From the IMG/VR virus record IMGVR_UViG_2541047798_000010: a stretch of 43,320 bases of DNA; one strand, 5' to 3'. Position 1 is the first letter of the stretch. Every line of letters starts with the position of its first letter. The position numbers and the translations under genes were made by a program. The notes beneath the pieces are model-generated. The model had not been told where the DNA came from. It ran no database searches and saw only the letters and a program-made list of their open reading frames with translations. This document shows, piece after piece, positions 9,019 through 30,640 of this stretch. Source of the stretch: a virus. Its lineage: Duplodnaviria > Heunggongvirae > Uroviricota > Caudoviricetes.

Positions 9019-9030
9019 TGACATGTCACG
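9019..9030. repeat. 12-bp perfect palindrome GTGACATGTCAC (copy 1 of 3)
   Basis: Exact 12-mer also at 28175-28186 and 30629-30640. Confidence 0.6.
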
Positions 9031-9044
9031 ATAGTTTCGTTTTG

Positions 9045-9470
9045 CACATCCCTGTGCCGCCGTTCTGTCAGAAGAACCCTGCTTTGTCGTTGATATACTC
9101 CGCGTGGGTCTGGATATCACGCAGGCATTTGCTCACACCGACGATGTAGCAGAACATGGTGGTCAGCTCCGCCGCCGCGCCCGATACGTCGTGCCCGTCG
9201 TCCTGTAACTGGTTCAGCAGATTCATCAGCAGTGAGTTCTCCGTCAGGCCGAGAACACCAGACGGAGAATGAATCAGGCTGCGGTAGCCGGGCTTCAGCG
9301 GGGCACTGTAGATTTTGTTCTCTATCTTCATCGCCTGCATTACTGCTGACGCCGTGGCGTTGGCTACCTGGTCGGCAACCATCTTTATGCGTTCTTCCTG
9401 CGGGAGCGAGTTTTTAATGTAACTTCCGGTGCGGCGGATCTGAGGAAGTACTTCGCCTGTAACCCATTCA
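9045..9470. repeat. Right arm of the near-identical inverted repeat (3-prime half of ant2)
   Basis: Reverse complement matches 7585-8010. Confidence 0.8.
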
Positions 9471-9760
9471 AGAAATCTGAATGCTCTCGTTCCCTCAGTC
9501 ATTGCCTCTTTGCAACGCAGAATAAGGATGTAGAGACCTGATTCTGAAACGATGGATAGTTCTTGTATTCCACCAGGGGTCTGTATTGAATACAGCCCCT
9601 TTTTGTTCCAGCCTTTTTTATCAAGTTTTCTCGCTTGTGTAACATCAATATTCAAAGCATTGCACACATCTTTGGTGACAAACCAAGGTTCTCCGTCAAT
9701 CATGAACATACGGATCTGGCAGGATGACTCAAAGGAAAAGATGGAAGGTTTGGTATTCAT
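9068..9760 (-). CDS. Antirepressor paralog 2 (Bro-N-like N-terminal domain plus shared C-terminal effector domain), inverted relative to paralog 1
   Basis: 230 aa from ATG 9760 (RBS AGGTGA); N-terminal domain diverged from paralog 1, C-terminal about 130 aa near-identical. Confidence 0.8.
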   Translation of the reverse strand: MNTKPSIFSFESSCQIRMFMIDGEPWFVTKDVCNALNIDVTQARKLDKKGWNKKGLYSIQTPGGIQELSIVSESGLYILILRCKEAMTEGTRAFRFLEWVTGEVLPQIRRTGSYIKNSLPQEERIKMVADQVANATASAVMQAMKIENKIYSAPLKPGYRSLIHSPSGVLGLTENSLLMNLLNQLQDDGHDVSGAAAELTTMFCYIVGVSKCLRDIQTHAEYINDKAGFF

Positions 9761-10027
9761 GGCGATCACCTTTGTAGTTAGGTTAATCACCACCGCTGAG
9801 ACCAATCAGATGGTGGTGAACTGTGCAGAGTTGGTCTTACCGGCTACAAAGGAACCCGGCGCACCTTTCGGTGCCCCCACACAGCCCACCATAGAATAGG
9901 TGCGCTTTACACATAAAAAAACCGCTTATGCGGCATATGTGCCTCTGTAGTAATCCGGGAGACCAATCCCGGCACTGGATTTTGCCAGTGCCTGATTACT
10001 ATGGCACAAGAGGAGTGCGATGTAAAT

Positions 10028-10042
10028 TTACCGCAAAGGTAA
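10028..10042. promoter_or_regulatory. Operator-type palindrome TTACC-N5-GGTAA at the outer edge of the right ant arm
   Basis: TTACCGCAAAGGTAA; mirror of the 6989 copy, with the same downstream stem-loops and terminator in inverted orientation. Confidence 0.6.
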
Positions 10043-10065
10043 TGATAAACGCTAAGAAATATTAA

Positions 10066-10084
10066 AATCAACCATATTTGGTTA
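10066..10084. promoter_or_regulatory. Second palindromic motif ATCAACCAnATTTGGTTA (AACCA-N4-TGGTT), copy 1
   Basis: AATCAACCATATTTGGTTA; near-identical element at 36927-36945; degenerate AACCACATA versions at 6569, 27150 and 34987, each next to an operator-type site. Confidence 0.35.
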
Positions 10085-10189
10085 ATGCGTATAAAAGAGC
10101 CAGCAGCGAGAAATTGTGCCGCGACGTAAAATAACGAGCATCTGCTGGCTTACAACCAGCGATGTTTCAAATTTGTCACTATTATCAAC

Positions 10190-10543
10190 GTGCCATTCCA
10201 CGGCGCAGAGCTTTATGTTGTCAATCATAACGGCGAACCATACACCCCAATGAAACCTATCGTTGAAGGCATGGGTATGGATTGGGCTTCACAGTTTACG
10301 AAAATGAAGCAGCGGTTTAAAACCTGCATTGTGAAAATCACAATGCAGCTTCCTGGGGATGAACAGCGCCGTGAGATTATTTGTTTGGCACTTCGCAAAC
10401 TTGCTGGCTGGTTGCAAACCATCAGCCCTAACAAAGTCCGCCCTGAAATCCGCGAAAGTATTGAAACATCAACCGTATCGATATCGACACGGTTGATTAT
10501 GACGGTAACTTATTTCCGTGTGTCCTATTTCTCCCGCCACTAA
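10190..10543 (+). pseudogene. Possible gene remnant; ORF with GTG start and no RBS
   Basis: 117-aa track ORF; normal GC content, no ribosome-binding site, ends directly against the minus-strand AT-rich gene. Confidence 0.25.
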
Positions 10544-10840
10544 CTAATTATATTTGTCTTTAAAAATTTCATGGAATGATTGAGAGTAAGACTTGCCATA
10601 CTTCAAATAACATTCTTCATCCAACTTTCTTAATGAACTTCGAACCTGTTCGTGGCATACAGCAAAAAAAACAAGTCCGCCGCCTATTAATACCCCTATT
10701 GATATTGGGTTCGCAACATCCCATAAAAAATCGGCTAACAGAGCAAATACCCCACCGCCGCCAATAAATGCCCCTATAGCTCGGTTCGTTTTAGCTTGCT
10801 CATAGCGTCTCTCTAACTCACTAAACTCTTTAATATCCAT
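10544..10840 (-). CDS. Small two-TM membrane protein, AT-rich moron
   Basis: 98 aa from ATG 10840; two Gly-rich hydrophobic helices (GAFIGGGGVFALLADFLW and ISIGVLIGGGLVFFAV) with charged termini; low GC. Confidence 0.55.
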   Translation of the reverse strand: MDIKEFSELERRYEQAKTNRAIGAFIGGGGVFALLADFLWDVANPISIGVLIGGGLVFFAVCHEQVRSSLRKLDEECYLKYGKSYSQSFHEIFKDKYN

Positions 10841-10917
10841 ATAAGCACCTCTATAAAATTACTTCATCACCGGATCCACCTGGTTTATTAGTGGCGCAAT
10901 CCAGAACAGATGTTTTA

Positions 10918-11766
10918 TTATTGTGAAGTTTTCATTGCACGATTTTCAGCTCTGAATTCAAGAACCGTTTCAATATTTCTTTCCTTCAGCATATCCATAA
11001 CATTTTTATTCATTTGACTATCACTGGTTAATAACTGATAAACGTTTCTTTTCTCTTTATCAGAATTTTCTTTAACAGCTGATTTGCATGACAAATGCTT
11101 ATTGAAATTTTCTACATCGCTAGTACATGAATTTACGGCTGCGGATGAAATATCAGACGCTGAAGAAACACCGTCATCTAAACGTTTTATAGCATTTTCT
11201 ATACATGAGTTAAGGGAATAAACGACAACTGAGCGATACCCTTCAGACGCACACCATTCTAAATTTCTTGAAGGATCGAGTGGTTTTACTTCGCTGGATT
11301 GAATTAACTTGTCAAACACTGACTTATATTCAATCTGTTTTTTATCTATAGCCCATACCTCAGTAGCTGATTTATAATGCCCAGTATGCTTATTAACATC
11401 AAACCCATGTTTTATAAGCAAATCTGCCCATGAAAGATTTATTGATTCATTGTTATGAGGCCATTTCCCTGTCAGAACCGCCCCCATAGACCCCATATAT
11501 CCGCCATATGATGGTATAGCACCATGGCTCAATAACTTCTCAGCAACCACAGGGCAATTAATTACATAGGAGGCGTAAAGCCCATTCCATAAAGCCCCTC
11601 TATAGTAATCGCCGCGATTAGGTTCTTTTAAGTCGATAGCCTTTGATAATTGTTCACACGTTTTGCATGCATCAAAGTTATCCTTATTGCATTGCAATGA
11701 ACTGGCGGCTGTAGGATTTACAGCGACTATTGAAAGCACAATGCCAAACAAATTTATTTTTTTCAT
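10918..11766 (-). CDS. Secreted Cys-rich protein of unknown function, AT-rich moron (possible degenerate ankyrin-like repeats)
   Basis: 282 aa from ATG 11766; N-terminal signal peptide MKKINLFGIVLSIVAVNPTAASS; many Cys; segments such as ADLLIKHGFDVNKH resemble ankyrin repeat ends; low GC. Confidence 0.6.
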   Translation of the reverse strand: MKKINLFGIVLSIVAVNPTAASSLQCNKDNFDACKTCEQLSKAIDLKEPNRGDYYRGALWNGLYASYVINCPVVAEKLLSHGAIPSYGGYMGSMGAVLTGKWPHNNESINLSWADLLIKHGFDVNKHTGHYKSATEVWAIDKKQIEYKSVFDKLIQSSEVKPLDPSRNLEWCASEGYRSVVVYSLNSCIENAIKRLDDGVSSASDISSAAVNSCTSDVENFNKHLSCKSAVKENSDKEKRNVYQLLTSDSQMNKNVMDMLKERNIETVLEFRAENRAMKTSQ

Positions 11767-11767
11767 C

Positions 11768-14700
11768 CTATTTCATCTGCTCTTCAACTTTATTCAGTAA
11801 TGGTGATATCGCCCACAGGTTCTGAAAAGGTAGCATTTTACGGACCGCGTGGGTTTGCTGGCTGTCAAATTCTCCGTTAAGTACACCATTCGCAACCGTC
11901 GCGGCATCACCGCCAAGATCAAAGGTAGGACCAAGTAAAGCACCAATAGCATTACGACTCTGAAACCTTGATACCGGAGGCGCACCAAACATCGCGCCAA
12001 GACCAAACCTACCGCCGCTTATGTTCTCAACGGTATTCAGCGGCTCAGAGAGCCAGCCAAGCATTCCACCCCGGTCGATCCCCTCTTTCACAAGGTTATT
12101 CCAGCTGTAGTCGATATCGCGACCGCTTAACTTCTGTTTCATCATATAGACCATTGAGCCAAGCGCAATCGTGCCAAGCGCACCAAGATAGAATGCAGCA
12201 TCGCCCTGCTGGATACCAGATACCAGCACCCTGTTATGCTGTGCGAAGATAAACGTTTTGAACTGCGTGATCATCTTCCAGCCTTCTTTACTAAAAAACA
12301 GCGGTGTATCACCTACGCCAGGCGTTACAATCACTGAGTCTACATCTTTCAGCACTGCAGACTGGAAAATCTCTCTAGCGAAACGGTCATCCCACAGATG
12401 ACTATGCCCGGTTAACAGCCCGTCCATATCCTCTCCGTGCTTCCCGAATTGCTCCCCGATTCGGCGCAGAACATCTTCATTGATGCCGACCTGTGCCATC
12501 TTCCGCATTTCACTTTTGGAGAGCGTGCCACCAGCAGAAACTTGGCGAGCCGCGTCAAGTATCCTCGACTGCACTATCATCCCAGACCATGATTTAAGTG
12601 CGCTGTTCCACTGATTCATCAGCGTCCAGTTACCGAATTTCTGCGTCATCCAGTTCAGACCTCGCTCAGCGGCGCTTCTCCGGCTATAGGGGTCAGTAAG
12701 ATCCGCTATAGCCTTTGTACGCGTAGACAGGACATAATCAAGCCCAACTGCCATTTCTCGCAAATCCCTGGTTGCAATTTTCACTGAGTCCATATTTTTA
12801 AGCATGCTTACCATTGGTCCGAGAGATTTTCTCAGGCCATGCTGCATCATCGGTCGCATCAGATCAGTTGCAGCGGAGACGGTCATTCCACCAAGCAAAC
12901 GGAGGAAGTTAATATTCCTAGCAACTCGCCCGGCACGAACAAAGAAACTGCGTGGATCTTGAGGTGCACCGTAAGTACCAAGCAGTCGATCACGCATAGC
13001 CGTAATATCCCTAATATCAGCCTCCCGTTGCTTCTCAAGAACTGCACGTCGTTTAGGTGTTTTAGCCTCTTTTATTAGCCTGGTATATTCCTCACTAACC
13101 TGACGGATTTGCTCCCCCATATCTTTACGGCCAAACTGCGCAGTCAGCTCAATTTCTGGTGCCACCTGCCGGAGATAACTTTCCATGATGTAGTTAACAT
13201 CTGATTCAAGAAAATCTTCTATACGCTCATCAGGAATAAGCAGCGTTCGGCTTTTAGTGAAACCAGCCCGACCAACGAGTCTCTCTGGGATAATATCGGC
13301 TGGTACAAGCCCGGAAGGTGCGCCTATTATTTTATTCACGATCTCGTCAGCAGCGTCCTCTGCTTCCTCTCGGGATAGAGGCTCCATCTGCTTCAGTGCT
13401 CGCTCGCGGCTTGCATTCAGCCTTGTGGTTGAATTTGCCCGTTTTTGCAGTCGGCGAAGCTCAGAACGATATTTCCGTGGATTATCCAGCAACTCCATAT
13501 GGCGCTGATAGACAGGAAGCTCACTCTTTGCCTGCGCTATATCATCAAGGCGTGTTTTAAGGTCAGAGCTTTCTTTCATCATTCTTGCCTGAAGTTTTTC
13601 TGATGAAGTCTCGGCCAACTCTTTTTCTATTCTTGTAAGACGCGCCTGTGTGTCAGTCTCCTGAGATATAAGCTTATTTCGTTTATCCAGTTCTTCCATG
13701 AGTAGAATTTTTTTACCAGACCATTTCTCCGCTTCAGCGATTTCACTAGCGAGAGCATCAGCGCGCGGTGCTGATTCCTCTGCAGTTTTTAGCAATGAAT
13801 TTATCTTTTCAATTCGCTGACCTGCTTTGTCAGCACCTTTGGCACTAATCCCTTGTATCCAGTTGGCAATTCGCCCTCTGAATTCAGTGCGGTCGGAAAG
13901 TATCTTATCGAACTTATAAATGCGGGGAAGATAACTCTTCGCCGTCACGACATCGATATCCTCAGGAAGGATCCCCAATTCCTGCATACGGGCTTTTGTG
14001 GTCTCAAAAATGGGGCGGATTCTGGCGGCTGCTTGTGAAACCTCAGGAATATCACTCTGATCACCACGGCGCATAGCCATGCCAACAGCTTCATTGAAAT
14101 CAATAAAGTTCATCCTCTTCACGCCGCGGGCGCTGACAGATTTGCTGTACTGCTGGTAAGCATCACGAGTAGCTTCCATCTGCTTATAAAGCATGGCGTC
14201 GTATTGCTTAATCTTAGTCTCGACTGCCGTAAACGTAGCCAACCCCTCATCATTTTTGGCGAAGAAATAGTTATTTTCGGCAAGCTGCTGGTTAATCTGA
14301 CGGGAAACAAGAGATGGTGATTGCGCCAAGCGGCCAGCAGGAGTGACACTCAACGTTTTGTTAGCAAGTCCAAGTCCAGCAAGCTGTTCCTGATCGAGTG
14401 TGGTATTGAAAACCTGAGCTGCACCAATGCTTTGAGGAGAATCCATACCTCGCAAATGATTACCTACTGAGTTAACCACTGCCTCGCGCGCGCTAGGTCC
14501 AGCAAGTAGCTGTGCACCAGCACCAAGGATCCCACCAACGAGAGCATCAACAACAACGTTCGATACGCTCTCCATCGGTGAGCGAGCTTCCTGAGTGGCC
14601 TGCAATGCGGCCTCTGAAGCAACACTGCCAGCAGCATTGGCTAAAGCAAAACGTCCGGCTGTTTCTGCAATACGACCGCCACGAACGACAGCGCCGAACG

Positions 14701-15157
14701 GAATAAACATAGAAATCGCATTGAATGGATCTGCTAATCTCATTGCTACAGAAGAGACTGTACCAGCAAATCCCAAGCCTGAATTGTATTCCATGTCAGC
14801 TCTCTGCTGATCGATTCGATGTTTAATTGCCATTGTTTCTTCATGCGAACCGGAGTTGATAAACGAATCTGCAAAATCTTCATAGCCTTTAATATCTGCT
14901 GCATCGTTATCAAATGGGTTATATCCTTCAACCCTGTCAAACTGACTGAAAGGAGCACTGGCAATAAAGCTACCCAGCGTGTTATCTATACGAAATGCTG
15001 CTTGTCTAGACCTTTGAACGCGTTGATCACTGGTAAATGGGTTCACAGCAGAAAGCAAAGAAGGTGTTTCCATATAGAAATTACTGTCATCAGGTGCTGC
15101 TATTTGCTGAATACCCTCGCCAAGCAACTCTTTAGGATCCTGTTCATATATCGGCAT
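11768..15157 (-). CDS. Large internal virion / DNA-ejection protein (T7 gp16-like position and size)
   Basis: 1129 aa; coiled-coil-rich; start ATG overlaps the upstream stop (TAATG); last gene of the tail/core module. Confidence 0.6.
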   Translation of the reverse strand: MPIYEQDPKELLGEGIQQIAAPDDSNFYMETPSLLSAVNPFTSDQRVQRSRQAAFRIDNTLGSFIASAPFSQFDRVEGYNPFDNDAADIKGYEDFADSFINSGSHEETMAIKHRIDQQRADMEYNSGLGFAGTVSSVAMRLADPFNAISMFIPFGAVVRGGRIAETAGRFALANAAGSVASEAALQATQEARSPMESVSNVVVDALVGGILGAGAQLLAGPSAREAVVNSVGNHLRGMDSPQSIGAAQVFNTTLDQEQLAGLGLANKTLSVTPAGRLAQSPSLVSRQINQQLAENNYFFAKNDEGLATFTAVETKIKQYDAMLYKQMEATRDAYQQYSKSVSARGVKRMNFIDFNEAVGMAMRRGDQSDIPEVSQAAARIRPIFETTKARMQELGILPEDIDVVTAKSYLPRIYKFDKILSDRTEFRGRIANWIQGISAKGADKAGQRIEKINSLLKTAEESAPRADALASEIAEAEKWSGKKILLMEELDKRNKLISQETDTQARLTRIEKELAETSSEKLQARMMKESSDLKTRLDDIAQAKSELPVYQRHMELLDNPRKYRSELRRLQKRANSTTRLNASRERALKQMEPLSREEAEDAADEIVNKIIGAPSGLVPADIIPERLVGRAGFTKSRTLLIPDERIEDFLESDVNYIMESYLRQVAPEIELTAQFGRKDMGEQIRQVSEEYTRLIKEAKTPKRRAVLEKQREADIRDITAMRDRLLGTYGAPQDPRSFFVRAGRVARNINFLRLLGGMTVSAATDLMRPMMQHGLRKSLGPMVSMLKNMDSVKIATRDLREMAVGLDYVLSTRTKAIADLTDPYSRRSAAERGLNWMTQKFGNWTLMNQWNSALKSWSGMIVQSRILDAARQVSAGGTLSKSEMRKMAQVGINEDVLRRIGEQFGKHGEDMDGLLTGHSHLWDDRFAREIFQSAVLKDVDSVIVTPGVGDTPLFFSKEGWKMITQFKTFIFAQHNRVLVSGIQQGDAAFYLGALGTIALGSMVYMMKQKLSGRDIDYSWNNLVKEGIDRGGMLGWLSEPLNTVENISGGRFGLGAMFGAPPVSRFQSRNAIGALLGPTFDLGGDAATVANGVLNGEFDSQQTHAVRKMLPFQNLWAISPLLNKVEEQMK

Positions 15158-18934: not shown

Positions 18935-21405
18935 CAGAACCCACCAACAGTAAGGCGAGGAATAACGGCAAGAACAGACAGCGGCAACGGATCAAGCTGA
19001 CGGATTTTTACACGTCCGTTTTTGCCCCAGTTACTGTCCAGTTTCACTTCTACTTTTCCGGTAGCATCATCAACAGGATCATCGTAGAACTCGAATTCAC
19101 GCTGTGGATATTCGTACCATTTACCGCCGGGCGTAGTCGCCCAGATGCCGCGACTGGCATTCACAACCAGAGTAACGGAGGGGATCACCTGTTTTTTGTC
19201 CAGCAGCGTTTCCTGTCCGTTAATGTTGATATCCAGTGTTTCGAATTCAGCAGTTATTGGCAGGCCGATGTGCACTACAGCCCCCGGAGATTCCAGCGTG
19301 ACGGCACCTCCGGAAACCACTTTCTGTGGTTCCACGTTCGCATCAGAGAGAATGTTTACGGTCTGGCCTTCAAGATGAGACAGGCCTCCAAATGTCCGGC
19401 GCGCCATCTGCCAGTTCGTGGTGGCCACATTCCTGAGGGATGGCGGGACGTTCCTGTTAGCACGAACCACTACAGCGGTATTGCTGGTTACAGAAATAAT
19501 GTCGCAACGTAATTCTTTTGACACCTCATCGCCAGTATCAGGATCAGTTCCGGTATAAGGGAACTGTAGTTGCGCGCCGACATCACTACTGGTGAAGTAC
19601 GCACCACCAGAAACACTGATTGTATATTCCGCGCGGTAATCCCATTCGCCAGAACCACCAGTGATGGTCATCGTTCTGTCAGACGTATTTCTTCCATCAT
19701 AGCTAAGGCCAGAATCAACAAAGAAAGCATCTTCATCGCTGGTAAATAAACGGCTGGACAGTCGCTCGATGTATCTCACTGTTTGCCCGTTAACGGTTCG
19801 GTTAATGACGAAATACACCGCATCTTCATTGCCTTCGCTGATACTGCATGTGCTTTCATATTTTCCGGTACTGGACTGTGGTGCCCATGCAAAAACCTGT
19901 TGATCACGCAAATAGGTCATCACCAGTAATTTACCGTCATCACGAATGCAGAAGGCGCTGGAGTAAGGGACAATAGAGAAGCACCAGTCAACAATGCTGT
20001 GCTTCTGAAAAAGATGATTGGCAAGGATAGTAAGGTCGTTCCCCTGATAGCCGTCAACATCGAATGAGTAGGCCAGATCACGGACAACACTGCCTTTCTC
20101 CTGGACGAACAGAGCAATATTCGCCACGGCAATTGGTGGGACATTGCTCGAGCCATTTGATCCCTGAGAGCTGAATGCAAATGATGATGGGGTTAACACT
20201 TTGTTCTGGTCGCCGGTGATGACGTACTCACCTCCGGAAGTCAGCGCCACCAGAGAACCAACATCAATCAGGTGGCGGATCTCATTAACCTGACGCCCGG
20301 CATAGGTGTAGATAATTCTGTCGTCATCCTGCGTAGGATTGCTTTTGCCAAAATCCTTATAATCCCCGGTACGGCTGGCCCAGATAGTCTGAGGGAACGC
20401 AGTCGATGCGGCGAAGTAAAGACGCTGTTGATAATAAACAACAGTGCCAGGATAACCATTAACACTGTTCCAGGCATATTTAGCCCATTTATAGCTGGCA
20501 TTATCCTCGCCAACGACCTGCGAAGGGATATAGGAAATCACCTCAGCAGTTGCAGTAGTGCCATTTACAGCAGTTATACTGGCAATGCCAAAACCACTGT
20601 GCAGATACTCCCACTCAATGCCAGTATCATCATCACCGGATCCGCCCCAGCCATCCCATGATGTGCCTTCTGTATGCGAAGGGCGCAAAGTACCTGTTTT
20701 GCCTGCTGTAACGGCGCGATAGTAGTTACTGTCTGCACGGCGAATATCGCCAATCGACGTACTCTTACTGGTTTCCCATACCGGCACAGAATCCACTGCA
20801 GGCTGTTCCAGATAGAACAATTTGCCTACCTGCTCCGCGCCAAAAATAGAGGCGCTTGCCGTTAACGTAATTGTCCCGGTGCTGGCGCTGGCATAAACCG
20901 TCACTGACTCGTCAATATTGATATCTTCAAATGGCCCGTTCTTCGTTACCACATCAACCAGTTGCCAGTTGTCATGCGCATAGCGACGCAACTCTTTCGG
21001 CGGGTATGCCGGATGAACCAGCGTAAGCACGTCGGCGCTTTGCGTGAATTTAATTCGGAACAGATCGGCTTCAGTATATGGCGTGGCAATTTCATAAATA
21101 ACATTGCTGCTGTTCAGCACCAACGCACCATCTTTGATAACGCGCATGTACTGGTGTCCGAACTCCAGAGCATAGGTCTGAACCGTCGAGAACTGGAACG
21201 GGATCAGGCGGCATTTCCGATTTGGGTATTTGGCGGCACCGACAAAACGCGTACCAGGTCGATTCTCAACGCCGCCATACTGCCGCACGATAAAGTTATC
21301 GCACTTGCGCAATGCCACCTGGTACTTCGCCATGTCAATACGCCCGTACAACGACGGTCCAATCTCACCACCGGCAAAGCTGGGCTGGATCCAACTGATA
21401 GCCAT
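18934..21405 (-). CDS. Tail tubular protein B-like (nozzle), T7 gp12-like size and position
   Basis: 823 aa; follows a 202-aa gp11-sized protein; ATG 21405. Confidence 0.5.
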   Translation of the reverse strand: MAISWIQPSFAGGEIGPSLYGRIDMAKYQVALRKCDNFIVRQYGGVENRPGTRFVGAAKYPNRKCRLIPFQFSTVQTYALEFGHQYMRVIKDGALVLNSSNVIYEIATPYTEADLFRIKFTQSADVLTLVHPAYPPKELRRYAHDNWQLVDVVTKNGPFEDINIDESVTVYASASTGTITLTASASIFGAEQVGKLFYLEQPAVDSVPVWETSKSTSIGDIRRADSNYYRAVTAGKTGTLRPSHTEGTSWDGWGGSGDDDTGIEWEYLHSGFGIASITAVNGTTATAEVISYIPSQVVGEDNASYKWAKYAWNSVNGYPGTVVYYQQRLYFAASTAFPQTIWASRTGDYKDFGKSNPTQDDDRIIYTYAGRQVNEIRHLIDVGSLVALTSGGEYVITGDQNKVLTPSSFAFSSQGSNGSSNVPPIAVANIALFVQEKGSVVRDLAYSFDVDGYQGNDLTILANHLFQKHSIVDWCFSIVPYSSAFCIRDDGKLLVMTYLRDQQVFAWAPQSSTGKYESTCSISEGNEDAVYFVINRTVNGQTVRYIERLSSRLFTSDEDAFFVDSGLSYDGRNTSDRTMTITGGSGEWDYRAEYTISVSGGAYFTSSDVGAQLQFPYTGTDPDTGDEVSKELRCDIISVTSNTAVVVRANRNVPPSLRNVATTNWQMARRTFGGLSHLEGQTVNILSDANVEPQKVVSGGAVTLESPGAVVHIGLPITAEFETLDININGQETLLDKKQVIPSVTLVVNASRGIWATTPGGKWYEYPQREFEFYDDPVDDATGKVEVKLDSNWGKNGRVKIRQLDPLPLSVLAVIPRLTVGGF

Positions 21406-22719: not shown

Positions 22720-22729
22720 CGATATCACC

Positions 22730-23167
22730 TTAACCAGTTACTTTTGAGCGGATCGGATACGGCGTATTGGCATCAACATCAAGACTGATACCAGCAGTGA
22801 ATTCGCCAGCCGTTAGTGGGCCAGTTGCGACGGAGTAGTTAACACGCAGATATCGCTGAACACCGGCAGGCACCTTTGCAGAAACAACTCGTTTACCTGC
22901 TGTCAGGGCGGTCTTTGCCAGTGCGCCACTATCATAAATAGTGGTCCATGAGCTGTTATTTTCACTCGTCTGCAACTGGATGTTTACAGTTGCATCACCG
23001 CTTGCCGCGGCGGCTGTGTTAACCAGCGCCCAAAACTCAAGCGGGTAACCAACGCCGATATCACGACGTTTTCCGTCAATTGGACCGAGATCGATTACGT
23101 CAGTAGAAGCCGCGGTATCAGTTACCGCCTGAGCTTCGGAGAACATCAACAGTTTGTCGGTGATCAT
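22730..23167 (-). CDS. Putative capsid decoration/stabilisation protein
   Basis: 145 aa; RBS GGAG; immediately downstream of the major capsid gene; Thr/Ser/Ala-rich beta-type composition. Confidence 0.4.
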   Translation of the reverse strand: MITDKLLMFSEAQAVTDTAASTDVIDLGPIDGKRRDIGVGYPLEFWALVNTAAAASGDATVNIQLQTSENNSSWTTIYDSGALAKTALTAGKRVVSAKVPAGVQRYLRVNYSVATGPLTAGEFTAGISLDVDANTPYPIRSKVTG

Positions 23168-23218
23168 CTTCTTTCTCCATTAGTGGGTCTGTTACGACCC
23201 ACAGGTTAATAACAGGCG

Positions 23219-24211: not shown

Positions 24212-24219
24212 TTCCTCTC

Positions 24220-24915
24220 TTATTTGCCATAGAGCACTTCGGCCGCACTACGCTGGCCTTCATTACCACCGGTGACCATGCCATCTTCAGACATCGCCTT
24301 TCCGATTTTCACGAACGTTTTGACCAGATCAGGGTGATTACCCAGCCCGGTGGTGTTCAGATATTCTTTGAGTTCAGGTGTCCCGAACTGGTCAAGCGCA
24401 CGCTGTGCGGCGCTAAGGTTAGAAATCAACTTGTCGCCACCGATTTCTTTGTCAGCTTTTACATCAGCAGCCCACTGCTCGGTTGTTTTCTGCCAGGCTT
24501 CTGCCTGGCGCTGCTGCACACCTGCCAGAATCTTCGGATAAGCATCAACCAGCTTTTGCGCTTGCTCGTTGGTCAGGTTAAGTTCTCGCGCCACCGGCTC
24601 GAACTCCTTCAGCGCTTCTGTATCCAGCTCTACGCCTTCGGCAGCCTGAAACTCGTACTTCTCAGGCGCACCCTCTGGTTTATCGCCGTCCTTTTTTTCA
24701 TCCTGCTTATCGTTTTCAGGATTTTTGTCATCAGCAGGTTTATCGCCATCAGCAACAGGTTGTGGCTTATCACCTTCCTGTTGTGATGGATCACCAACTG
24801 GAGCAGGGTTATCACCTGCAGGCGCTGACGGTTCTGACGCAGCCGGAGCTGCTCCACCATCGACTGGTTGCTCATTGCAAAGACGGCGATACAGCAAACG
24901 CTCAAATAAATTCAT
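24220..24915 (-). CDS. Scaffolding protein
   Basis: 231 aa from ATG 24915 (RBS AGGAG); acidic, Pro/Asp/Lys-rich N-terminus and helical C-terminus; between portal and capsid. Confidence 0.55.
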   Translation of the reverse strand: MNLFERLLYRRLCNEQPVDGGAAPAASEPSAPAGDNPAPVGDPSQQEGDKPQPVADGDKPADDKNPENDKQDEKKDGDKPEGAPEKYEFQAAEGVELDTEALKEFEPVARELNLTNEQAQKLVDAYPKILAGVQQRQAEAWQKTTEQWAADVKADKEIGGDKLISNLSAAQRALDQFGTPELKEYLNTTGLGNHPDLVKTFVKIGKAMSEDGMVTGGNEGQRSAAEVLYGK

Positions 24916-24917
24916 GA

Positions 24918-25214
24918 TCACTCCTGTTCACTGGCCTCTTTGGCCATCTTCAAATACTGTTCAGGGCAATGCGCCATAACGCGCTGAAACAGTTCCAGCG
25001 CCAGATTGCGTTGCCCCTCATTAAATGCCATTGCCATAGCGTCCATCGGTGAGATAGCGGAAAACACACGGCCTTTCTCCAGCACCGACCAGACAACGCG
25101 ACGCCCCTGTTCACTGCTCATGACAAAGCGAATGTCATCAATTTCACGCTGCGCCATGTCACGTTGCTTACGGGCGTTTTCTTCTTTCAGTTGTTCGTCT
25201 TCGTAATCTGTCAT
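24918..25214 (-). CDS. Small hypothetical protein between portal and scaffold
   Basis: 98 aa; ATG 25214 overlaps the portal stop. Confidence 0.45.
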   Translation of the reverse strand: MTDYEDEQLKEENARKQRDMAQREIDDIRFVMSSEQGRRVVWSVLEKGRVFSAISPMDAMAMAFNEGQRNLALELFQRVMAHCPEQYLKMAKEASEQE

Positions 25215-26890
25215 TGTGATTGCCCACCCTGACCACTAACTGCATTCGCCATAGCTGACAAAACACTCGGATCCGAAGTTTTAGCTTCGCTTAGCGTCTT
25301 GGCACCCTGTGCCGCCGCCATCCCCATCGCCATCATTTGTTGCTGCTGTTGCTGCTGTGCCCGTTGCTGGCGAGCCTGCTCAACCTGTTCCTGCGGAACA
25401 ATGACGGTTGGAGACACTCCGGACATATCAGCGAATGCATCGATCGCTTGATCAACGTTGAGTTTGTCGAGAGCTTCTGGTTTCGCTTGCGCAAGTTGAC
25501 CAATGAAGTTAACCGTGGACGCCAGACTGGACAGGCCGATAGACTTCTGCGCCTGAGCCATGACGGAAATGTATTCGACCTTCAGGGGCATGCCTTCCAT
25601 CGCGTCAGGCGGTGGCGGCAGCATGTTTTTACGCACCATCATCGAGAAAGCGCGGTCAATGAGAGGATTAAGACATTCGTCGTTCAGACGCTCCAGAACC
25701 GGCCCCAACATCAGAAGTTTTTCTTCTTTCATTTCGATCACCGCTTCAACAGGCATCGAGCGGGTATTGATGTTCTGCAACATCATGAACAGATCGACAA
25801 AGTAGGCGCTGTTAATGATTTGACGAGTGTCCTGAATGTCTGCCACCAAATCTGCTGTACTGGGGTTAACCAGATAAGCAGGCCTGAAGCCATCCTGACC
25901 AGTAATCTGATCGATATACGTGATGTCGCCAGGAAGAAGGGAGGCGCGCTGATTCTTGAGGGAAGTCGGAGCAACCATCGGCGGATTGGTGGCTTTATCA
26001 ATCAACTGCGACTTGCGCTTCTGAAGAAGCTGCAATGCCTTAACAGCTCCAAGCGCCAGCATACCCGGGCATGATGATCCATAAACATCTTCGCCGTTAA
26101 CTTCCCAGCGCGGAGCCATAATTGGAAACTCATCGAATCCGGACTCACGCAACAACTTGTCGTTATCGCCACCAACCTCGTAATAAACCGATTTGAATGG
26201 CTTGTTCTTGCTATCCAGCTTCGATGTATCGCGGTCAATGTTCGGGTAAACCGAATGCATCACTTCAATCCACTTCTCGTAGGTGCCGCTTTCCCACATG
26301 CTTTTTACGGATTCGCTGACGTTATTTAGCCCGAACTCCTGAACAAGCTGACGAACAGTCATAGAGAACTTGCGGAAACAGGTGTCCACACTGCCACGAG
26401 GTGAGTTAGCCAGGTAGTAACTGCCTATCGGGAATGGCATTGTGCGAATGATGTCCTCGTCATCCTCCAGCACCGCCATTGCACCAGTGCTGTATGTGCC
26501 GAGGCTTCCGTATAACTGCGGAAGAGACTGGTAGAGATTCGACTTATTGAACATATCGTTCATGCGGTTCTGCACCGCCTCAAGCCACAACTTAACAGGG
26601 CCATAATCCATCATTTCAGGATCTGGCGTAGCCAGGCGAAACCACGGACGCGCGGGGCTTGTGATGCCTGACATCATGCCGCTGGCGAGAGTGCGCGCCG
26701 CCATAGTCCCGGTCGAATCAATAATGCGTGTATTGCGTCGATCGTTACGGTTGACCTCAGAAGTCAGAAAGCGGGAACCACGCGGGTTGATGTAATCACT
26801 CAACTCGCGCCAGTGCGGCTCGAACGACTGACGCTCGCTTTCAAGTTGTGCGAACTGTTTGTTCAATCGCTCTTTAGTTGTTTCCGCCAT
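25211..26890 (-). CDS. Portal (head-to-tail connector) protein
   Basis: 559 aa; RBS GGAG; first large gene of the head module; Gln-rich C-terminal tail. Confidence 0.75.
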   Translation of the reverse strand: MAETTKERLNKQFAQLESERQSFEPHWRELSDYINPRGSRFLTSEVNRNDRRNTRIIDSTGTMAARTLASGMMSGITSPARPWFRLATPDPEMMDYGPVKLWLEAVQNRMNDMFNKSNLYQSLPQLYGSLGTYSTGAMAVLEDDEDIIRTMPFPIGSYYLANSPRGSVDTCFRKFSMTVRQLVQEFGLNNVSESVKSMWESGTYEKWIEVMHSVYPNIDRDTSKLDSKNKPFKSVYYEVGGDNDKLLRESGFDEFPIMAPRWEVNGEDVYGSSCPGMLALGAVKALQLLQKRKSQLIDKATNPPMVAPTSLKNQRASLLPGDITYIDQITGQDGFRPAYLVNPSTADLVADIQDTRQIINSAYFVDLFMMLQNINTRSMPVEAVIEMKEEKLLMLGPVLERLNDECLNPLIDRAFSMMVRKNMLPPPPDAMEGMPLKVEYISVMAQAQKSIGLSSLASTVNFIGQLAQAKPEALDKLNVDQAIDAFADMSGVSPTVIVPQEQVEQARQQRAQQQQQQQMMAMGMAAAQGAKTLSEAKTSDPSVLSAMANAVSGQGGQSQ

Positions 26891-26904
26891 TTCAATGACT
26901 CCGG

Positions 26905-27111
26905 TTACTGACCAAGCAGCGTTTTACCGCTGGTATTAGCGGTTGATGTGTCGCCCTGAGAACCGGTAAGCAGCGTAGAACTACGACCAGCAGCAGCGCG
27001 ACGGCGACGAGTTTCTTCGTCGCGGGCATCAACAACGGCGGCATCCTGCTCCTGTGGTGCTGCCTGAACTTCTGGTGTTGCAGGCACTGATGGTGAGCTA
27101 CCCATGCACAT
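26905..27111 (-). CDS. Small Ala/Gln-rich protein, first ORF of the late operon; weak call
   Basis: 68 aa; RBS GGAG 8 nt upstream of ATG 27111; low-complexity sequence. Confidence 0.35.
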   Translation of the reverse strand: MCMGSSPSVPATPEVQAAPQEQDAAVVDARDEETRRRRAAAGRSSTLLTGSQGDTSTANTSGKTLLGQ

Positions 27112-27149
27112 ATCAATGACTCCGTACGCAATTAAATTATTACCAATTT

Positions 27150-27163
27150 AACCACATATGATT
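27150..27163. promoter_or_regulatory. Degenerate AACCA-N4-TG motif upstream of the late (portal) operon, 38 bp from an operator-type site
   Basis: AACCACATATGATT; compare AACCACATATGGAT at 6569-6582 upstream of the tailspike. Confidence 0.3.
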
Positions 27164-27201
27164 TATTTATCGTAGATAGTTGACATTTAACGCACTAATT
27201 A

Positions 27202-27216
27202 TTACCTTTCAGGTAA
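27202..27216. promoter_or_regulatory. Operator-type palindrome TTACC-N5-GGTAA upstream of the late operon
   Basis: TTACCTTTCAGGTAA; TTGACA hexamer at 27180-27185. Confidence 0.6.
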
Positions 27217-27239
27217 GCAAAGAGTTCATTCCGGTTATT

Positions 27240-27538
27240 AACCTGACTGGCTTGTCGTTAAATTGAACAGGTGGGGTGAGCTTTTATTTTGAGCAGTACG
27301 GTGTATGGCACATGCGCCGATAGCGGTCTGGATACGTTTAAGGGGCACCCTCCCTTGCTCGGGCAAACGAACCAGGTAGCCGGAATGTGCAAGTCGAGCG
27401 GTTTTATTCCGCGCACGGGGATTCACCATCCCGGCGATTCGGTGTGACGCCTCGGAAGAGACGAGGGTACAACGATGAGAGCATTTATGGAGCCGCGACA
27501 AAGTGTGGTGCCTTAACAGGCTAAGTGCTCTCAGCGTT
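27240..27538 (+). other. About 300-bp non-coding, stem-loop-rich segment upstream of the tRNA; possible leader or uncharacterised structured RNA
   Basis: No plausible ORF on either strand; several GC-rich stem-loops (for example GGGGAT/ATCCC, CCTCG/CGAGG, GCACAT/ATGTGC). Confidence 0.25.
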
Positions 27539-27615
27539 GTGGCATTAGCTCAGTTGGACAGAGCAACCGCCTTCTAAGCGGTTGGTCGCAGGTTCGAATC
27601 CTGCATGCCACGCCA
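27539..27615 (+). tRNA. tRNA-Arg (anticodon UCU, reads AGA), phage-encoded
   Basis: 77-nt cloverleaf: acceptor GTGGCAT/ATGCCAC, D-stem GCTC/GAGC, anticodon stem ACCGC/GCGGT with loop CTTCTAA, T-arm GCAGG-TTCGAAT-CCTGC, discriminator G and encoded CCA; differs from host argU. Confidence 0.9.
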
Positions 27616-27658
27616 GAATCACGCCTAAGGACCGTGATGCCAGAAGTTCCAGGGGCTT

Positions 27659-27701
27659 GGCGGTGATGGTTTCCCTTGAAGGACTATCACCGCCCTTTTT
27701 A
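27659..27701 (+). terminator. Rho-independent terminator downstream of the tRNA
   Basis: 9-bp stem GGCGGTGAT/ATCACCGCC followed by CTTTTT. Confidence 0.65.
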
Positions 27702-27778
27702 CAGCAGGACGCCATTGCGATGGCTTCATGCTGTAAACCAGTACAGCCACGGAAGGCATAACTCATTGCTTCCAGTTC

Positions 27779-27802
27779 GCCCGGTTCGCCGGGCATTTTT
27801 TT
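27779..27802 (+). terminator. Second hairpin plus U-tract immediately before the RBS of the next gene (terminator or attenuator)
   Basis: GCCCGG-TTCG-CCGGGC followed by ATTTTTTT, then AAGGTGA RBS and ATG 27814. Confidence 0.5.
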
Positions 27803-27813
27803 AAGGTGAGATT

Positions 27814-28170
27814 ATGAACGACCAGCAAATCGAAAAAGAAATCGCTGAGAAAGGCAAAACGGCACCGCGAGTTACGCCCCAATATATCGAAAGCATCATT
27901 CTTGAAGAGCATTTCTTTACTGCTTATGACGGCATTCGTGCTGCCAATATGGGCGTTGGCGATTCATGGACAGCGCATAAATCTACAGACCTCCTGACTT
28001 TCTGCGTACTGGTGCTGAAGAATGGCTTCACCGTCACCGGAGAGAGCGCCTGTGCAAGCCCGGAAAACTTTGATGCAGAAATTGGTCGGAAGATTGCCCG
28101 GCAGAATGCTGTAAACAAAATCTGGATGCTTGAAGGTTACTTGCTGAAGCAGAAGTTAAGCGAGCAATAA
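27814..28170 (+). CDS. Small phage protein, probably N4 Gp49 / Sf6 gp66-like family; plus-strand moron between terminase and portal
   Basis: 118 aa; RBS AAGGTGA; N-terminus MNDQQIEKEIAEKGKTAPRVT matches a widespread prophage protein family (assignment from memory). Confidence 0.5.
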   Translation: MNDQQIEKEIAEKGKTAPRVTPQYIESIILEEHFFTAYDGIRAANMGVGDSWTAHKSTDLLTFCVLVLKNGFTVTGESACASPENFDAEIGRKIARQNAVNKIWMLEGYLLKQKLSEQ

Positions 28171-28174
28171 CACC

Positions 28175-28186
28175 GTGACATGTCAC
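28175..28186. repeat. 12-bp perfect palindrome GTGACATGTCAC (copy 2 of 3), at convergent gene ends
   Basis: Exact 12-mer, 5 bp after the stop of the 27814-28170 gene and downstream of terL. Confidence 0.6.
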
Positions 28187-28260
28187 AAACAGCCAGCCTA
28201 TGAGCTGGCTTTGTTTTATCCTCACCAGAGGATATCAACGACATTATCCCCACCAGCGGA

Positions 28261-29736
28261 TTAAGCATAGGGATCGTAATCTGTAATGGCCTTGCCTTGC
28301 TGGTTCTGCTGACCTGGAATTCGCAGACGCTTCGACACAGGGAAAGCAAACGTCAGCAATAGCGCATCGCCTTTACCCGGCGAACGCCCAAGACGCTCTT
28401 TGATATCTTCCTTCGGTTCGATAACGATTTTACCGTCCACACGAACTTTGTACTCTGCCGCCGACAGGTCGTCTGCAGTTTCCTGGTCATCCAGCATGCC
28501 GCCCAGCCTCAGCCATGTCTTACATGAGTTGAACATCTCCCCACGCTTGTTAAGCATCTGCGGGTCAGTGGACGCACCGCCGAACGGAACAAGTTGCCAT
28601 GTACGTCCCCAGCCATCACCGATTGACTTCAGACCGGTTCCGTAACCGAAGTCGATGAACACCGCGTCAGCCTGGTACTGGTCTTCAAAGTCAGCGATAC
28701 GCTTCGCCATAATCAGATCGTCGGTGGTCTTGTTGCCGGTCCACAGCACCTTACTGTGCAGCCCCTGCCGCAGGTATATCACCGCGTCATCAACGCCTGA
28801 ATATGCCGGGTCAACACCGATTATCACCGGAGCATGTGCAACCTGCGCAGCGGTTACCACCCGTTTCATTGCCTCGTCAGTAAGACCGGTAGGGATAAAC
28901 TGCAATTCAGATGCATCAGGGAATATGCCACGCACACGGATTTTAACGAAGTCGCTATCTTCCCCGTAGTCATCAACCCATTTCTGCAACTGCTGTTTGT
29001 TGGTGCCTTCCACCGTCCTGCTGTCAATCTGCGCAGTTTTCCAGCGGTGTTTGTATTTGCGGAAACATTCACGGAAACGCCCGGTGTTACGTGTAGGGTT
29101 TCCGAAAGCCACCCAGATAATCTCAGTGTCTTCGTCCGTTAGCGCACCCTCGGCAACTTCCCACACCAGATCCGCAATGTTCGACGCTTCATCAAATACC
29201 ACGATGATGCGTTTACGCTCGTTGTGTAGTCCGGCGAATGCCTCAGTGTTGTGCTCAGACCAGGGGATTGCGTCAGCTCGCCACCGCTTGTCGTGCCCAG
29301 GGTCATTGCTGTACATCGCGGTAGCGGTACAGGTAAACCAGTCTTTCGTGATAGCAAGGTTTGACCACTTGATAATTTCCGGCCAGGTCTTCGTTCGTAG
29401 CTGGTTGTCGGTGTTGGCGGTCACCACGACCTTACAATCCTCGCAAGTGGACATGCCCCAGTTGGTCAGCATTGAGATGAATGCGGATTTACCAATACCG
29501 TGACCAGAAGCACGTGCCAGCATAAGCGGCTGATATCGCGTCTCTGGATTCTGCAGGTGATCACGTATCTCTCGGAACGCATCAGCCTGCCACTGACGTG
29601 GGCCGGTGGCATGTGCCAGTTCAGTCCCCTCTTCCCCCCATGGGAACGCATAGAGGGCATAGCCAAGCGGATCGTGAGTGAACCCTGCAATATCCTCGAT
29701 TAACTGCTCTTCAGGAGATAACGCTGTATCTGTCAC
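28261..29736 (-). CDS. terL: Terminase large subunit
   Basis: 491 aa; GTG start overlapping the terS stop (GTGA); Walker A-like GHGIGKS; C-terminal nuclease region. Confidence 0.9.
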   Translation of the reverse strand: MTDTALSPEEQLIEDIAGFTHDPLGYALYAFPWGEEGTELAHATGPRQWQADAFREIRDHLQNPETRYQPLMLARASGHGIGKSAFISMLTNWGMSTCEDCKVVVTANTDNQLRTKTWPEIIKWSNLAITKDWFTCTATAMYSNDPGHDKRWRADAIPWSEHNTEAFAGLHNERKRIIVVFDEASNIADLVWEVAEGALTDEDTEIIWVAFGNPTRNTGRFRECFRKYKHRWKTAQIDSRTVEGTNKQQLQKWVDDYGEDSDFVKIRVRGIFPDASELQFIPTGLTDEAMKRVVTAAQVAHAPVIIGVDPAYSGVDDAVIYLRQGLHSKVLWTGNKTTDDLIMAKRIADFEDQYQADAVFIDFGYGTGLKSIGDGWGRTWQLVPFGGASTDPQMLNKRGEMFNSCKTWLRLGGMLDDQETADDLSAAEYKVRVDGKIVIEPKEDIKERLGRSPGKGDALLLTFAFPVSKRLRIPGQQNQQGKAITDYDPYA

Positions 29737-30332
29737 TGATTGCCATCCTGACGTTCTTTCAGTCTCTTCCTGGCTGCCGCTATGCGATCAGCAATTGTCA
29801 CATTCACATTAACATCCAGGCGTTCTTTGAATGCGTTGACGTCGACGTGCTTACCAATCAGTTCGAGGTTCTTCACCTTGTCAGGCCATTTAATTTTTTT
29901 GAGGATGCCAACCAGCTCTTTCTCGTCTCCACGGCCTTCGAACATGTCGGCCAGTTCGAAACCTGTCAGGTACTGCCGCCAGACCTTAGGCCATTCCGAG
30001 ACCGGCTTGATGCTCATATCGTCGTTGAGAATGTCAATCACGTCCATCTGGTCGATCTCCACCAGGCGCATGAGAACGTAATCAGCACTGACGCGCATTC
30101 GTTTGTTGCGCTCCTCCATCAACTCGGCAATCCGTTTTTGAATGCGTTCATCGCGCATCATGACACTGGCTTTAACTGCCGCTGTATTTGGGGAGAATCC
30201 TGCGTTAATCGCAGCCTGAGTCTGGTTTTCAGGCGTTTGGATGTATGACTGGCAATAAGCCTCCTGCATTGCTGTTAGTGGCTTAAATTGCGTTGATTTG
30301 CGTTTATAGGTTTTAGGTTCAGCAGGCATCAT
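29733..30332 (-). CDS. terS: Terminase small subunit
   Basis: Start chosen at ATG 30332 (199 aa); the track's longer TTG-start ORF translates the operator-containing leader into an implausible TITTTVTITTVV N-terminus. Confidence 0.6.
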   Translation of the reverse strand: MMPAEPKTYKRKSTQFKPLTAMQEAYCQSYIQTPENQTQAAINAGFSPNTAAVKASVMMRDERIQKRIAELMEERNKRMRVSADYVLMRLVEIDQMDVIDILNDDMSIKPVSEWPKVWRQYLTGFELADMFEGRGDEKELVGILKKIKWPDKVKNLELIGKHVDVNAFKERLDVNVNVTIADRIAAARKRLKERQDGNQ

Positions 30333-30349
30333 AACCACCGTGGTAATAG

Positions 30350-30364
30350 TTACCGTTGTGGTAA
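30350..30364. promoter_or_regulatory. Operator-type palindrome TTACC-N5-GGTAA 18 bp upstream of terS
   Basis: TTACCGTTGTGGTAA, between a minus-strand terminator and the terS start. Confidence 0.6.
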
Positions 30365-30370
30365 TAGTAC

Positions 30371-30401
30371 CATGCAAAATAAAGCCGCCATAGTTGGCGG
30401 C
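30371..30401 (-). terminator. Rho-independent terminator separating the early operon from terS-terL
   Basis: Minus-strand stem GCCGCC-AACTAT-GGCGGC followed by TTTATTTTG. Confidence 0.5.
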
Positions 30402-30406
30402 AGTAT

Positions 30407-30619
30407 TCAAAGTCCATCAAATTCATCGTAAAAACTCTCGTCAAGATACCCTTCCCATTTACCGCGAATGAAAATTACATCCTCGCCGCAAGGGTGCTGA
30501 CTGTCGATAACTATATCCCTCCTGGCGCAACCATACTTATGCATGAGAAATTTAACCTCTTTCGGAAAATTTGCTGAGTTATCTCTCATATCTTCAAGGT
30601 CGTAGCGTATTTTTGGCAT
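30407..30619 (-). CDS. Small hypothetical protein
   Basis: 70 aa from ATG 30619 (RBS AAGG 6 nt upstream); the track's GTG start lies inside the 12-bp palindrome. Confidence 0.4.
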   Translation of the reverse strand: MPKIRYDLEDMRDNSANFPKEVKFLMHKYGCARRDIVIDSQHPCGEDVIFIRGKWEGYLDESFYDEFDGL

Positions 30620-30628
30620 AACACCTTC

Positions 30629-30640
30629 GTGACATGTCAC
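30629..30640. repeat. 12-bp perfect palindrome GTGACATGTCAC (copy 3 of 3)
   Basis: Overlaps the stop codon of the zinc-ribbon gene, 10 bp upstream of ATG 30619. Confidence 0.6.

Follow-up and report, generated by a model that had tools for sequence, protein, structure and literature searches.

Introduction

A small ribbon-helix-helix (RHH) protein with a cognate palindrome is a known kind of DNA-binding pair, represented by the repressors Arc and Mnt of P22, CopG and MetJ, and by the antitoxins TacA, ParD and MazE. A 12-bp palindrome, GTGACATGTCAC, which may belong to a pair of this kind, is described here from a 43,320-nucleotide stretch of DNA (IMG/VR virus record IMGVR_UViG_2541047798_000010; Caudoviricetes), referred to below, at its full length, as the window. 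The window is an epsilon15/phiV10-like (Uetakevirus) prophage with its late genes on the minus strand, and corresponds to IMG/VR contig UViG_2541047826_000014. The palindrome is probably the docking site of a 112-amino acid (aa) protein encoded by the same prophage, and the pair probably marks the boundaries of gene blocks in hundreds of enteric and Vibrio phages.

Several other described systems resemble this one in part. LacI at O2, and CcpA and CodY at sites within transcription units, provide examples of roadblocks formed at operators inside or after genes. The mechanism proposed below is similar, in that a DNA-binding dimer located downstream of promoters can affect only an elongating polymerase, but the phage sites recur at three boundaries in each genome, systematically where operons end and next to intrinsic terminators. 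The Rep operators of epsilon15 and SPC32H are also a dispersed family of palindromes, present in the same phages (upstream of both terS and gp3, and near the tailspike gene); they are located ahead of gene starts, and the GTGAC palindrome at the ends of the preceding genes. The gene for the 112-aa protein is the last of the early-right operon, right before the terminator and the late genes, and its position is thus like that of lambda Q, although the protein has no Q-family domain and the site is not in a promoter. To our knowledge, regulation in epsilon15/phiV10-like phages is essentially uncharted beyond the Rep repressor and the antirepressor, with no known late-gene regulator; the ZX5 paper deals with the repressor, antirepressor and integrase only. 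In the MatP/matS system, matS is a 13-bp sequence, GTGACRNYGTCAC (PMC6907758). It has half-sites identical to those of the phage palindrome (GTGAC...GTCAC), its sites are likewise dispersed and single, and MatP contains an RHH domain, as predicted for the phage protein. However, matS has one more central base (a 3-bp spacer, against 2 bp in the phage site), and the phage sites are in phage genomes rather than in the terminus region of a chromosome.

The palindrome in the window and in epsilon15-like relatives

An exact-match search of the window returned exactly three copies of GTGACATGTCAC, as reported in a sequence-only reading of this DNA; the second and third are at the coordinates given there, but the first is at 9018–9029 and not at 9019–9030 (Table 1). 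The copies are designated, in order of position, sites C, B and A. The only further near-match, at 25151, has two mismatches and is at chance level. An asymmetric 14-mer, CGTGACATGTCACA, is common to all three copies, reading on the minus strand at copy 1. Repeated 12-mers as such are frequent: at least one of any kind was present three or more times in 155 of 300 third-order Markov simulations, and the window contains several others. A palindromic 12-mer was never present three or more times in these simulations (0/300), and was present two or more times in 2 of 300. A chance origin of the triple was rejected on the basis of the simulations and of the enrichment in relatives. The decisive support comes from conservation in other genomes; the repeated palindrome is a real, functional and widely conserved element.

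The sequence-only reading had named absence from the equivalent junctions of related phages as an observation that would count against it; in the relatives checked, the motif is present at three equivalent places, namely the stop of the last early gene, the region after terL, and the end of the structural/antirepressor block. In the Salmonella phage epsilon15, the 12-mer is found at 2142 (after terL), 19517 (over the gp18 stop, where the long structural operon ends) and 39612 (at the gp49 stop), and the epsilon15 record, in which many binding sites are annotated, has no feature at any of these positions. Enterobacter phage Tyrion has copies at 2702 (after terL), at 20377 and across the record junction, and phiV10 has exact copies at 2262 (after terL) and 19493, its junction copy having one mismatch. 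The GenBank records of phiV10 and Tyrion were opened inside the palindrome at the gp49-like stop, and a linear scan misses this third copy; the junction reads GTGA/CATGTTAC in phiV10 and GTGACA/TGTCAC in Tyrion. Phage phiv142-3 has a variant differing by one base, GTGACACGTCAC, at site B. The counterpart of site C is beside the same terminator in epsilon15, phiV10, Tyrion, phiv142-3 and TL-2011b. The flanks of equivalent copies have diverged among epsilon15, Tyrion and phiV10.

The degenerate form GTGAC-NN-GTCAC occurs 131 times in 80 epsilon15-like loci (1.35 Mb), against 1.3 expected. It is at the stop of the gp49-like gene in 73 of the 80, with a second peak 2.2–2.5 kb downstream, after terL; the few epsilon15-like genomes lacking the motif at the stop carry copies elsewhere. 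In four loci (L014, L024, L039 and L101), the gene ends with TAA and the palindrome is 9 bp beyond, indicating that the position of the palindrome is not a coding constraint.

A 14-bp site linked to one phage gene

The general site is a 14-bp sequence, Y-GTGAC-NN-GTCAC-R, of which GTGACATGTCAC is the epsilon15-lineage form. Outside this lineage, it was sought in a diverse set of 80 IMG/VR loci (1.2 Mb) encoding homologues with 35–47% identity to the 112-aa protein. The motif with a 2-bp spacer has 126 matches in 78 of these loci, and spacers of 0, 1 and 3–8 bp, an internal control of the same base composition, have 0–3 matches each. The stop codon is overlapped in the G-TGA-C register by 38 of the motifs, and 16 more lie within –30 to +60 nt. 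In N15, there are three copies of GTGACTGGTCAC, one of them reverse-complemented, and one overlaps, in the same register, the TGA of gp46, a 38% identical homologue. A Yersinia P2-like phage has a single site, GTGACGCGTCAC, at the stop of a 42% identical homologue, again in this register, and the Vibrio phage K303, the homologue of which is 34% identical, has three copies, one located 20 bp upstream of terS. About 0.04 copies per genome would be expected by chance in these three phages. Neither a gene of the 112-aa family nor the motif was found in lambda. A control set of gene-lacking loci, retrieved with the 14-mer as the seed, contained 7 extra motifs against 0.4 expected; this control is not clean, as at least three of its loci come from a group of phages in whose other members the gene is present, but beyond the part of the genome that was retrieved.

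The half-sites are invariant over very distant lineages. The centre dinucleotide is usually AT but depends on the lineage and tends to agree within a genome (TG in all three N15 copies, AA in three copies in locus L210), and position +1 on the 3' side is G at a frequency of 0.60 and A at 0.36 in 56 independent contexts. The earlier suggestion of a regulator-binding site is supported by the almost perfect co-occurrence of motif and gene, which narrows the candidate regulator to the predicted RHH family encoded by what had been called the zinc-ribbon gene. It is likely that a protein of this family binds the palindrome sites, as judged from the co-occurrence, the palindromic symmetry of the site and the fold. 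No paper in the literature collection searched contains the 12-mer, its variants or a 14-mer form; new here are the protein family, the precise site and the regularity with which it is located where genes and operons end, including over the stop codon of the gene itself.

The site might instead belong to a host protein, whether MatP acting on a matS-like sequence or another host factor, with an indirect linkage to the phage gene. Besides the shared half-sites, this would fit the hosts of the motif-bearing phages (Enterobacterales, Vibrio and Aeromonas), which are roughly the groups that have MatP. However, GTGAC-N3-GTCAC does not occur in the window and is not enriched in the related loci (2 matches in the 1.2 Mb that hold 126 with the 2-bp spacer), and the motif is tied to one phage gene, in a stop-codon register, in four unrelated phage types, lambda having neither gene nor motif. 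A centre dinucleotide that agrees within genomes and differs between lineages also fits a phage-specific partner, and a host-protein site seems quite improbable. Membership of the MatP/matS system itself was rejected on the basis of the site spacing, the non-enrichment of the 13-bp form and the absence of profile homology with hhalign. As a separate observation, phage K303 (L129) carries, besides its three 12-bp sites, one perfect matS-consensus 13-mer, GTGACACCGTCAC, at 19491, where about 0.01 would be expected.

The 112-aa protein family

The 112-aa protein is composed of a basic N-terminal helix, a predicted RHH-like domain and a C-terminal cluster of four cysteines. Two arginines of the basic helix (R8 and R13), several core positions and cysteines C79 and C82 are invariant, and C91 and C99 show little or no variation in the alignments. 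Searches of Pfam, NCBIfam and Protein Data Bank sequences with the single sequence and with profiles gave no match; the sole family match is PHROG 536, labelled 'transcriptional regulator'. A first AlphaFold2 model, built with 27 close homologues, was poor (pLDDT, the predicted local distance difference test, 62.7) and had no significant Foldseek match. An alignment of 46 sequences gave a better model, the structural matches of which include MatP, over the generic RHH part only. A dimeric DNA-binding protein with an RHH domain is plausible but not proven.

By its predicted fold, the protein would be of the same kind as the RHH repressors and antitoxins, although it has no sequence match to any curated RHH family and possesses the basic N-terminal helix and the cysteine cluster as additional parts. 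The short symmetric site with its strict 2-bp spacer, a candidate target of the protein, is also like those of RHH systems. By contrast with RHH operators, the sites in the window are single and dispersed, at gene 3' ends or terminator flanks, one of them over the stop of the protein's own gene; none of the three is next to a promoter-like match, and copies 1 and 2 are between convergent gene ends.

The family comprises 882 clusters at 90% identity, none of which is named. The members listed are from Serratia, Xenorhabdus, Providencia, Proteus, Morganella, Yersinia, Salmonella and other Enterobacterales, with further members in Klebsiella, E. coli and Citrobacter and homologues in Vibrio and Aeromonas phages.

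Two known modes of phage control were considered for the family and rejected. Antitermination of the Q or N/nut type is contradicted by the absence of Pfam or NCBIfam matches, the location of the site outside promoters, the marginal RNA hairpin that it can form, and the presence of a separate Q in N15. A general late activator is contradicted by the presence of Q in N15 and of Ogr in the Yersinia P2-like phage. In the latter (L128; NC_070918.1), an Ogr-family zinc-finger open reading frame (ORF; MMHCPRCKF...CTNINCGKTF...) is present at 32431–32646 on the plus strand, where the record gives a hypothetical protein on the opposite strand (32350–32628).

Placement at gene ends, terminators and mosaic junctions

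The gene neighbours of the three copies are those given in the sequence-only reading, as confirmed with the ORF list, the sequence and Pfam (Table 1). At site A, the palindrome contains the TGA stop of the 112-aa gene, the last gene of the early-right operon, and its 3' end is 9 nt short of the ATG of the next gene. The order onward is the 70-aa gene, the terminator of the early-right operon, two Rep-operator-like sites (30331–30365) and terS. The terminator is the counterpart of epsilon15 39646–39671, which is 22 bp past the palindrome in that phage. Site B is between the convergent ends of the Phage_gp49_66 gene and terL. Site C is between the 77-aa cargo gene and the Bro-N antirepressor gene, both of which point inward; the cargo converging on it consists of a DUF4760 gene and the 77-aa gene. 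The order of palindrome and hairpin at site C is conserved in relatives. A simple consensus scan found no promoter-like hexamer pairs beside any of the three copies.

Table 1. Positions of the palindrome copies, neighbouring genes, terminators and related sequence elements (window coordinates, except for the last row).
Feature	Position	Strand	Basis and remarks
Palindrome copy 1 (site C), GTGACATGTCAC	9018–9029	.	14-mer CGTGACATGTCACA at 9017–9030, minus
Palindrome copy 2 (site B)	28175–28186	.	14-mer CGTGACATGTCACA on plus
Palindrome copy 3 (site A)	30629–30640	.	Holds TGA stop 30639–30637 (–) of the 112-aa gene
77-aa cargo gene	8761–8994	+	PHROG 3117; conserved flank of site C in relatives
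Intrinsic terminator hairpin AGGCCGC-TTTC-GCGGCCT, then TGTTTTT	9000–9017	–	Terminator scan, RNA fold; abuts copy 1 (0-nt gap)
Bro-N antirepressor-like gene (ant2 in the sequence-only reading)	9068–9805	–	Pfam PF02498; transcribed toward copy 1 and terminator
Phage_gp49_66 (N4 Gp49 / Sf6 gene 66) family accessory gene	27814–28170	+	Pfam PF13876; variable flank of site B
Bidirectional terminator hairpin, gap between PF13876 gene and terL	28191–28210	+	Terminator scan, RNA folds (both strands); 4-nt gap to copy 2
terL, terminase large subunit	28261–29736	–	ORF list, annotation of relatives, tblastn across loci
Terminator, end of early-right operon	30384–30401	–	Terminator scan, epsilon15 annotation, sequence comparison
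70-aa gene, inserted between site A and early-operon terminator	30407–30619	–	PHROG 1541; in some relatives only
112-aa gene, GTG start, PHROG 536	30637–30975	–	Homologue of epsilon15 gp49, phiV10 p55, N15 gp46
ATTACC-N5-GGTAAT 17-mers	2720, 6608, 6988, 8055, 10027, 15178, 27201, 30331, 30349, 34966, 35028, 37334, 38046, 38108		Matches epsilon15 repressor-binding sites
LexA-box-like sequence	L008 ~6312, L026, L037; L128 10038–10057		Epsilon15-like relatives (L008, L026, L037); Yersinia P2-like phage (L128)

The preference for gene ends extends beyond the window. The 56 contexts that have no flank in common divide into 30 at the 3' end of a gene, 11 in other intergenic positions and 15 within ORFs, the last count being based on crude ORF calling, with at least one of the 15 intergenic in an annotated record. 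A terminator-like hairpin is present within 30 nt in 65 of 218 unique contexts, against 20 of 400 random positions, and the palindrome is followed by the hairpin with a gap of 0–4 nt in 48 of the 65. The palindrome is not itself an intrinsic terminator, as it can form a stem of at most 4 bp and has no T-run; the true terminators adjoin it.

A role for the palindrome in RNA, as a small hairpin or protein-binding sequence 5' of terminators that would serve in antitermination, processing or translation, would be in keeping with sites B and C, which directly precede a terminator hairpin on the T-run strand, and with site A, which precedes the ribosome-binding site of the following gene by 3 nt. 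However, five-base arms with a 2-nt centre cannot fold fully; only a marginal 4-bp stem is possible, and it is absent from the centroid structures at site C. Both arms are invariant in distant lineages, with no compensatory changes seen, and the associated protein has a predicted fold for binding double-stranded DNA. An RNA element is very improbable.

The three sites are also places at which homology between related phages often breaks off. When the site is written as C-GTGACATGTCAC-A, the A side is conserved and the C side is hypervariable up to the palindrome. The conserved block consists of the end of the gp49 gene at site A, of the terminator and the terL end at site B, and of the terminator and the end of the 77-aa gene at site C; the variable flank of site A is the 70-aa gene. 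One-sided homology at the palindrome (one flank at least 80% identical, the other less than 60%) was found in 54 comparisons at site A, 8 at site B and 9 at site C, and three megablast matches to other phages stop at window position 9030. Beyond the gene-end copy, the sequence differs from phage to phage: a terminator and terS in epsilon15, a small inserted gene in the window, a LexA-box promoter in some relatives and in the Yersinia phage, and an excisionase–integrase module in others. The earlier description of the palindrome as a module boundary thus stands, with a short conserved sequence exactly at homology breakpoints, as a description rather than a mechanism.

The companion suggestion of a dedicated recombination site is unlikely to hold, as recombination between copies in one genome would delete or invert terS–terL or structural genes. 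Module exchange as the primary function, at a site-specific target or a hotspot of short homology generating the mosaicism, would account for the megablast matches ending exactly at 9030 and for the dozens of comparisons in which one flank is conserved and the other is unrelated up to the palindrome. However, the core is symmetric and occurs in both orientations in one genome, such that a recombinase would delete or invert essential genes, and no recombinase co-varies with the motif. Many sites of other lineages are between ordinary consecutive genes or inside genes, and breakpoints would be expected at any conserved island at the end of a transcription unit. Recombination as the primary role is improbable, and the mosaic junctions are better explained by the sites marking transcription-unit ends, where accessory DNA is tolerated.

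A target for a nuclease, such as the HNH enzyme invoked in the sequence-only reading or the terminase, or a pac/cos signal, is extremely improbable. One copy is just upstream of the terminase genes in the window, the K303 copy close to terS has an HNH gene nearby, and the phiV10 and Tyrion records open inside the site A copy; record starts are, however, a convention and not mapped ends. Epsilon15 has three copies, and phiV10 two exact copies and one with a mismatch, and neither phage has an annotated HNH gene; none of the window ORFs scanned has an HNH domain. Three cuts would fragment the genome, and the cos of N15 and the record ends of the P2-like phage are far from the motif copies.

Sequences beside the sites

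The Rep operator, ATTACC-N5-GGTAAT in the epsilon15 record, where such sites are annotated at positions resembling those of the palindrome, was rejected as an identity for the palindrome, from which it differs and with which it has no overlap in the window. It has 14 near-matches in the window, against 1.1 expected, several of them upstream of gene starts, including that of terS. The terS ORF (29733–30410, minus strand), with a TTG start at 30410, spans the early-operon terminator and two of the Rep-operator-like sites; translation probably begins, as it does in epsilon15, at the ATG near 30332.

The Bro-N gene beside site C is an inverted paralogue of the gene at 7258–7983. Two pairs of segments, 6978–7083/9948–10053 and 7481–7984/9067–9570, are 92% and 89% complementary. 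This large inverted duplication takes in the promoter region of the antirepressor together with the 3' half of the Bro-N gene, and between its arms lie palindrome copy 1, the DUF4760 gene and the 77-aa cargo gene. Several of the other triple 12-mers of the window are parts of it. Elsewhere, CCAAAAACGGGA occurs three times within 120 bp (36269, 36293 and 36380; minus strand), inside the DnaT/HTH_36 replication-initiator gene (35838–36653), and these repeats may be origin iterons.

Just downstream of the gene-end palindrome, some epsilon15-like relatives and the Yersinia P2-like phage carry a perfect LexA-box-like sequence, TACTGT-N8-ACAGTA, in a promoter-like context (Table 1), which suggests the insertion of an SOS-controlled gene, perhaps Tum-like, at the boundary. 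In six lambdoid contigs (L013, L018, L023, L075, L116 and L125), the 14-mer forms codons 2–5 (MRDMSQ) of a QuuD-like Q gene; this may be fortuitous, or may reflect a site positioned at the beginning of Q. In an AT-rich lambdoid group (L030, L057, L120, L031, L038, L022, L226, L271 and L286), one palindrome is in the 3' part of a 151-aa gene at the cII position, and a second palindrome is found about 5 kb away in the leftward operon, the pair flanking the immunity region. The family gene of this group has no palindrome at its own stop.

A possible roadblock at transcription-unit boundaries

The diverse placement of the sites, together with the absence of promoter-like matches at the window copies, suggests an effect on polymerase during elongation, or on DNA organization, at the boundaries of transcription units, rather than classical promoter repression. 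The 112-aa protein would bind the 14-bp site as a dimer and, having accumulated after expression of the last early gene, the bound dimer would act as a roadblock or insulator limiting read-through. Read-through would be limited out of the early operon at site A, out of terS–terL or the convergent accessory gene at site B, and past the end of the structural/antirepressor block at site C, and the dimer would add to the effect of terminators that work strongly in only a single direction. Taken as a whole, with a cognate site and a boundary element combined, this explanation is reasonably probable; the roadblock or insulator action of the bound protein is its tentative part.

Several points weigh against this explanation. 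The binding of the site by the protein is inferred from co-occurrence, symmetry and fold, and the roadblock or insulator mechanism is itself doubtful. Some sites of other lineages lie inside genes (15 of the 56 contexts, by crude ORF calls), and one type of site is at the start of a Q antiterminator gene. Most of the 48 contexts in which the palindrome adjoins a hairpin descend from sites B and C in one lineage and are not independent. Protein bound at sites B and C would be only 0–4 bp past the hairpin, and a stalled polymerase might not complete it; synergy with the terminator is, therefore, not mechanically obvious.

The same pair of protein and site could also have an architectural role, bridging or condensing phage DNA in the manner of MatP and matS, or marking the genome for packaging or segregation. 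This seems rather unlikely, as the protein has no sequence homology to MatP (hhalign probability 0.2%), the number and position of the sites vary widely by lineage, with a single site in the Yersinia phage, and bridging would not call for the strong preference shown for the 3' ends of genes and the flanks of terminators. Furthermore, proximity to pac or cos is not a consistent feature of the sites, the cos of N15 being far from all three N15 sites. A phage-owned matS-like system, which would use a few dispersed sites for the folding or pairing of phage genomes, or for an interaction, cooperative or competitive, with the host terminus and division machinery during lytic growth, is very doubtful; if it did exist, the one-base difference in spacing would keep the phage and host systems orthogonal.

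Implications

A cognate site at the boundaries of gene blocks, with its predicted RHH partner, remains the preferred explanation, and it pairs a precise DNA motif with an uncharacterized and very widespread protein family. This pairing provides a testable hypothesis for the separation of early, packaging and structural transcription. If the protein does modulate terminator read-through from a DNA site, this would be an unusual mode of control. The palindrome is also a molecular landmark for mosaic exchange and accessory-gene insertion, and the motif provides a practical annotation marker for operon boundaries in epsilon15/phiV10-like phages.

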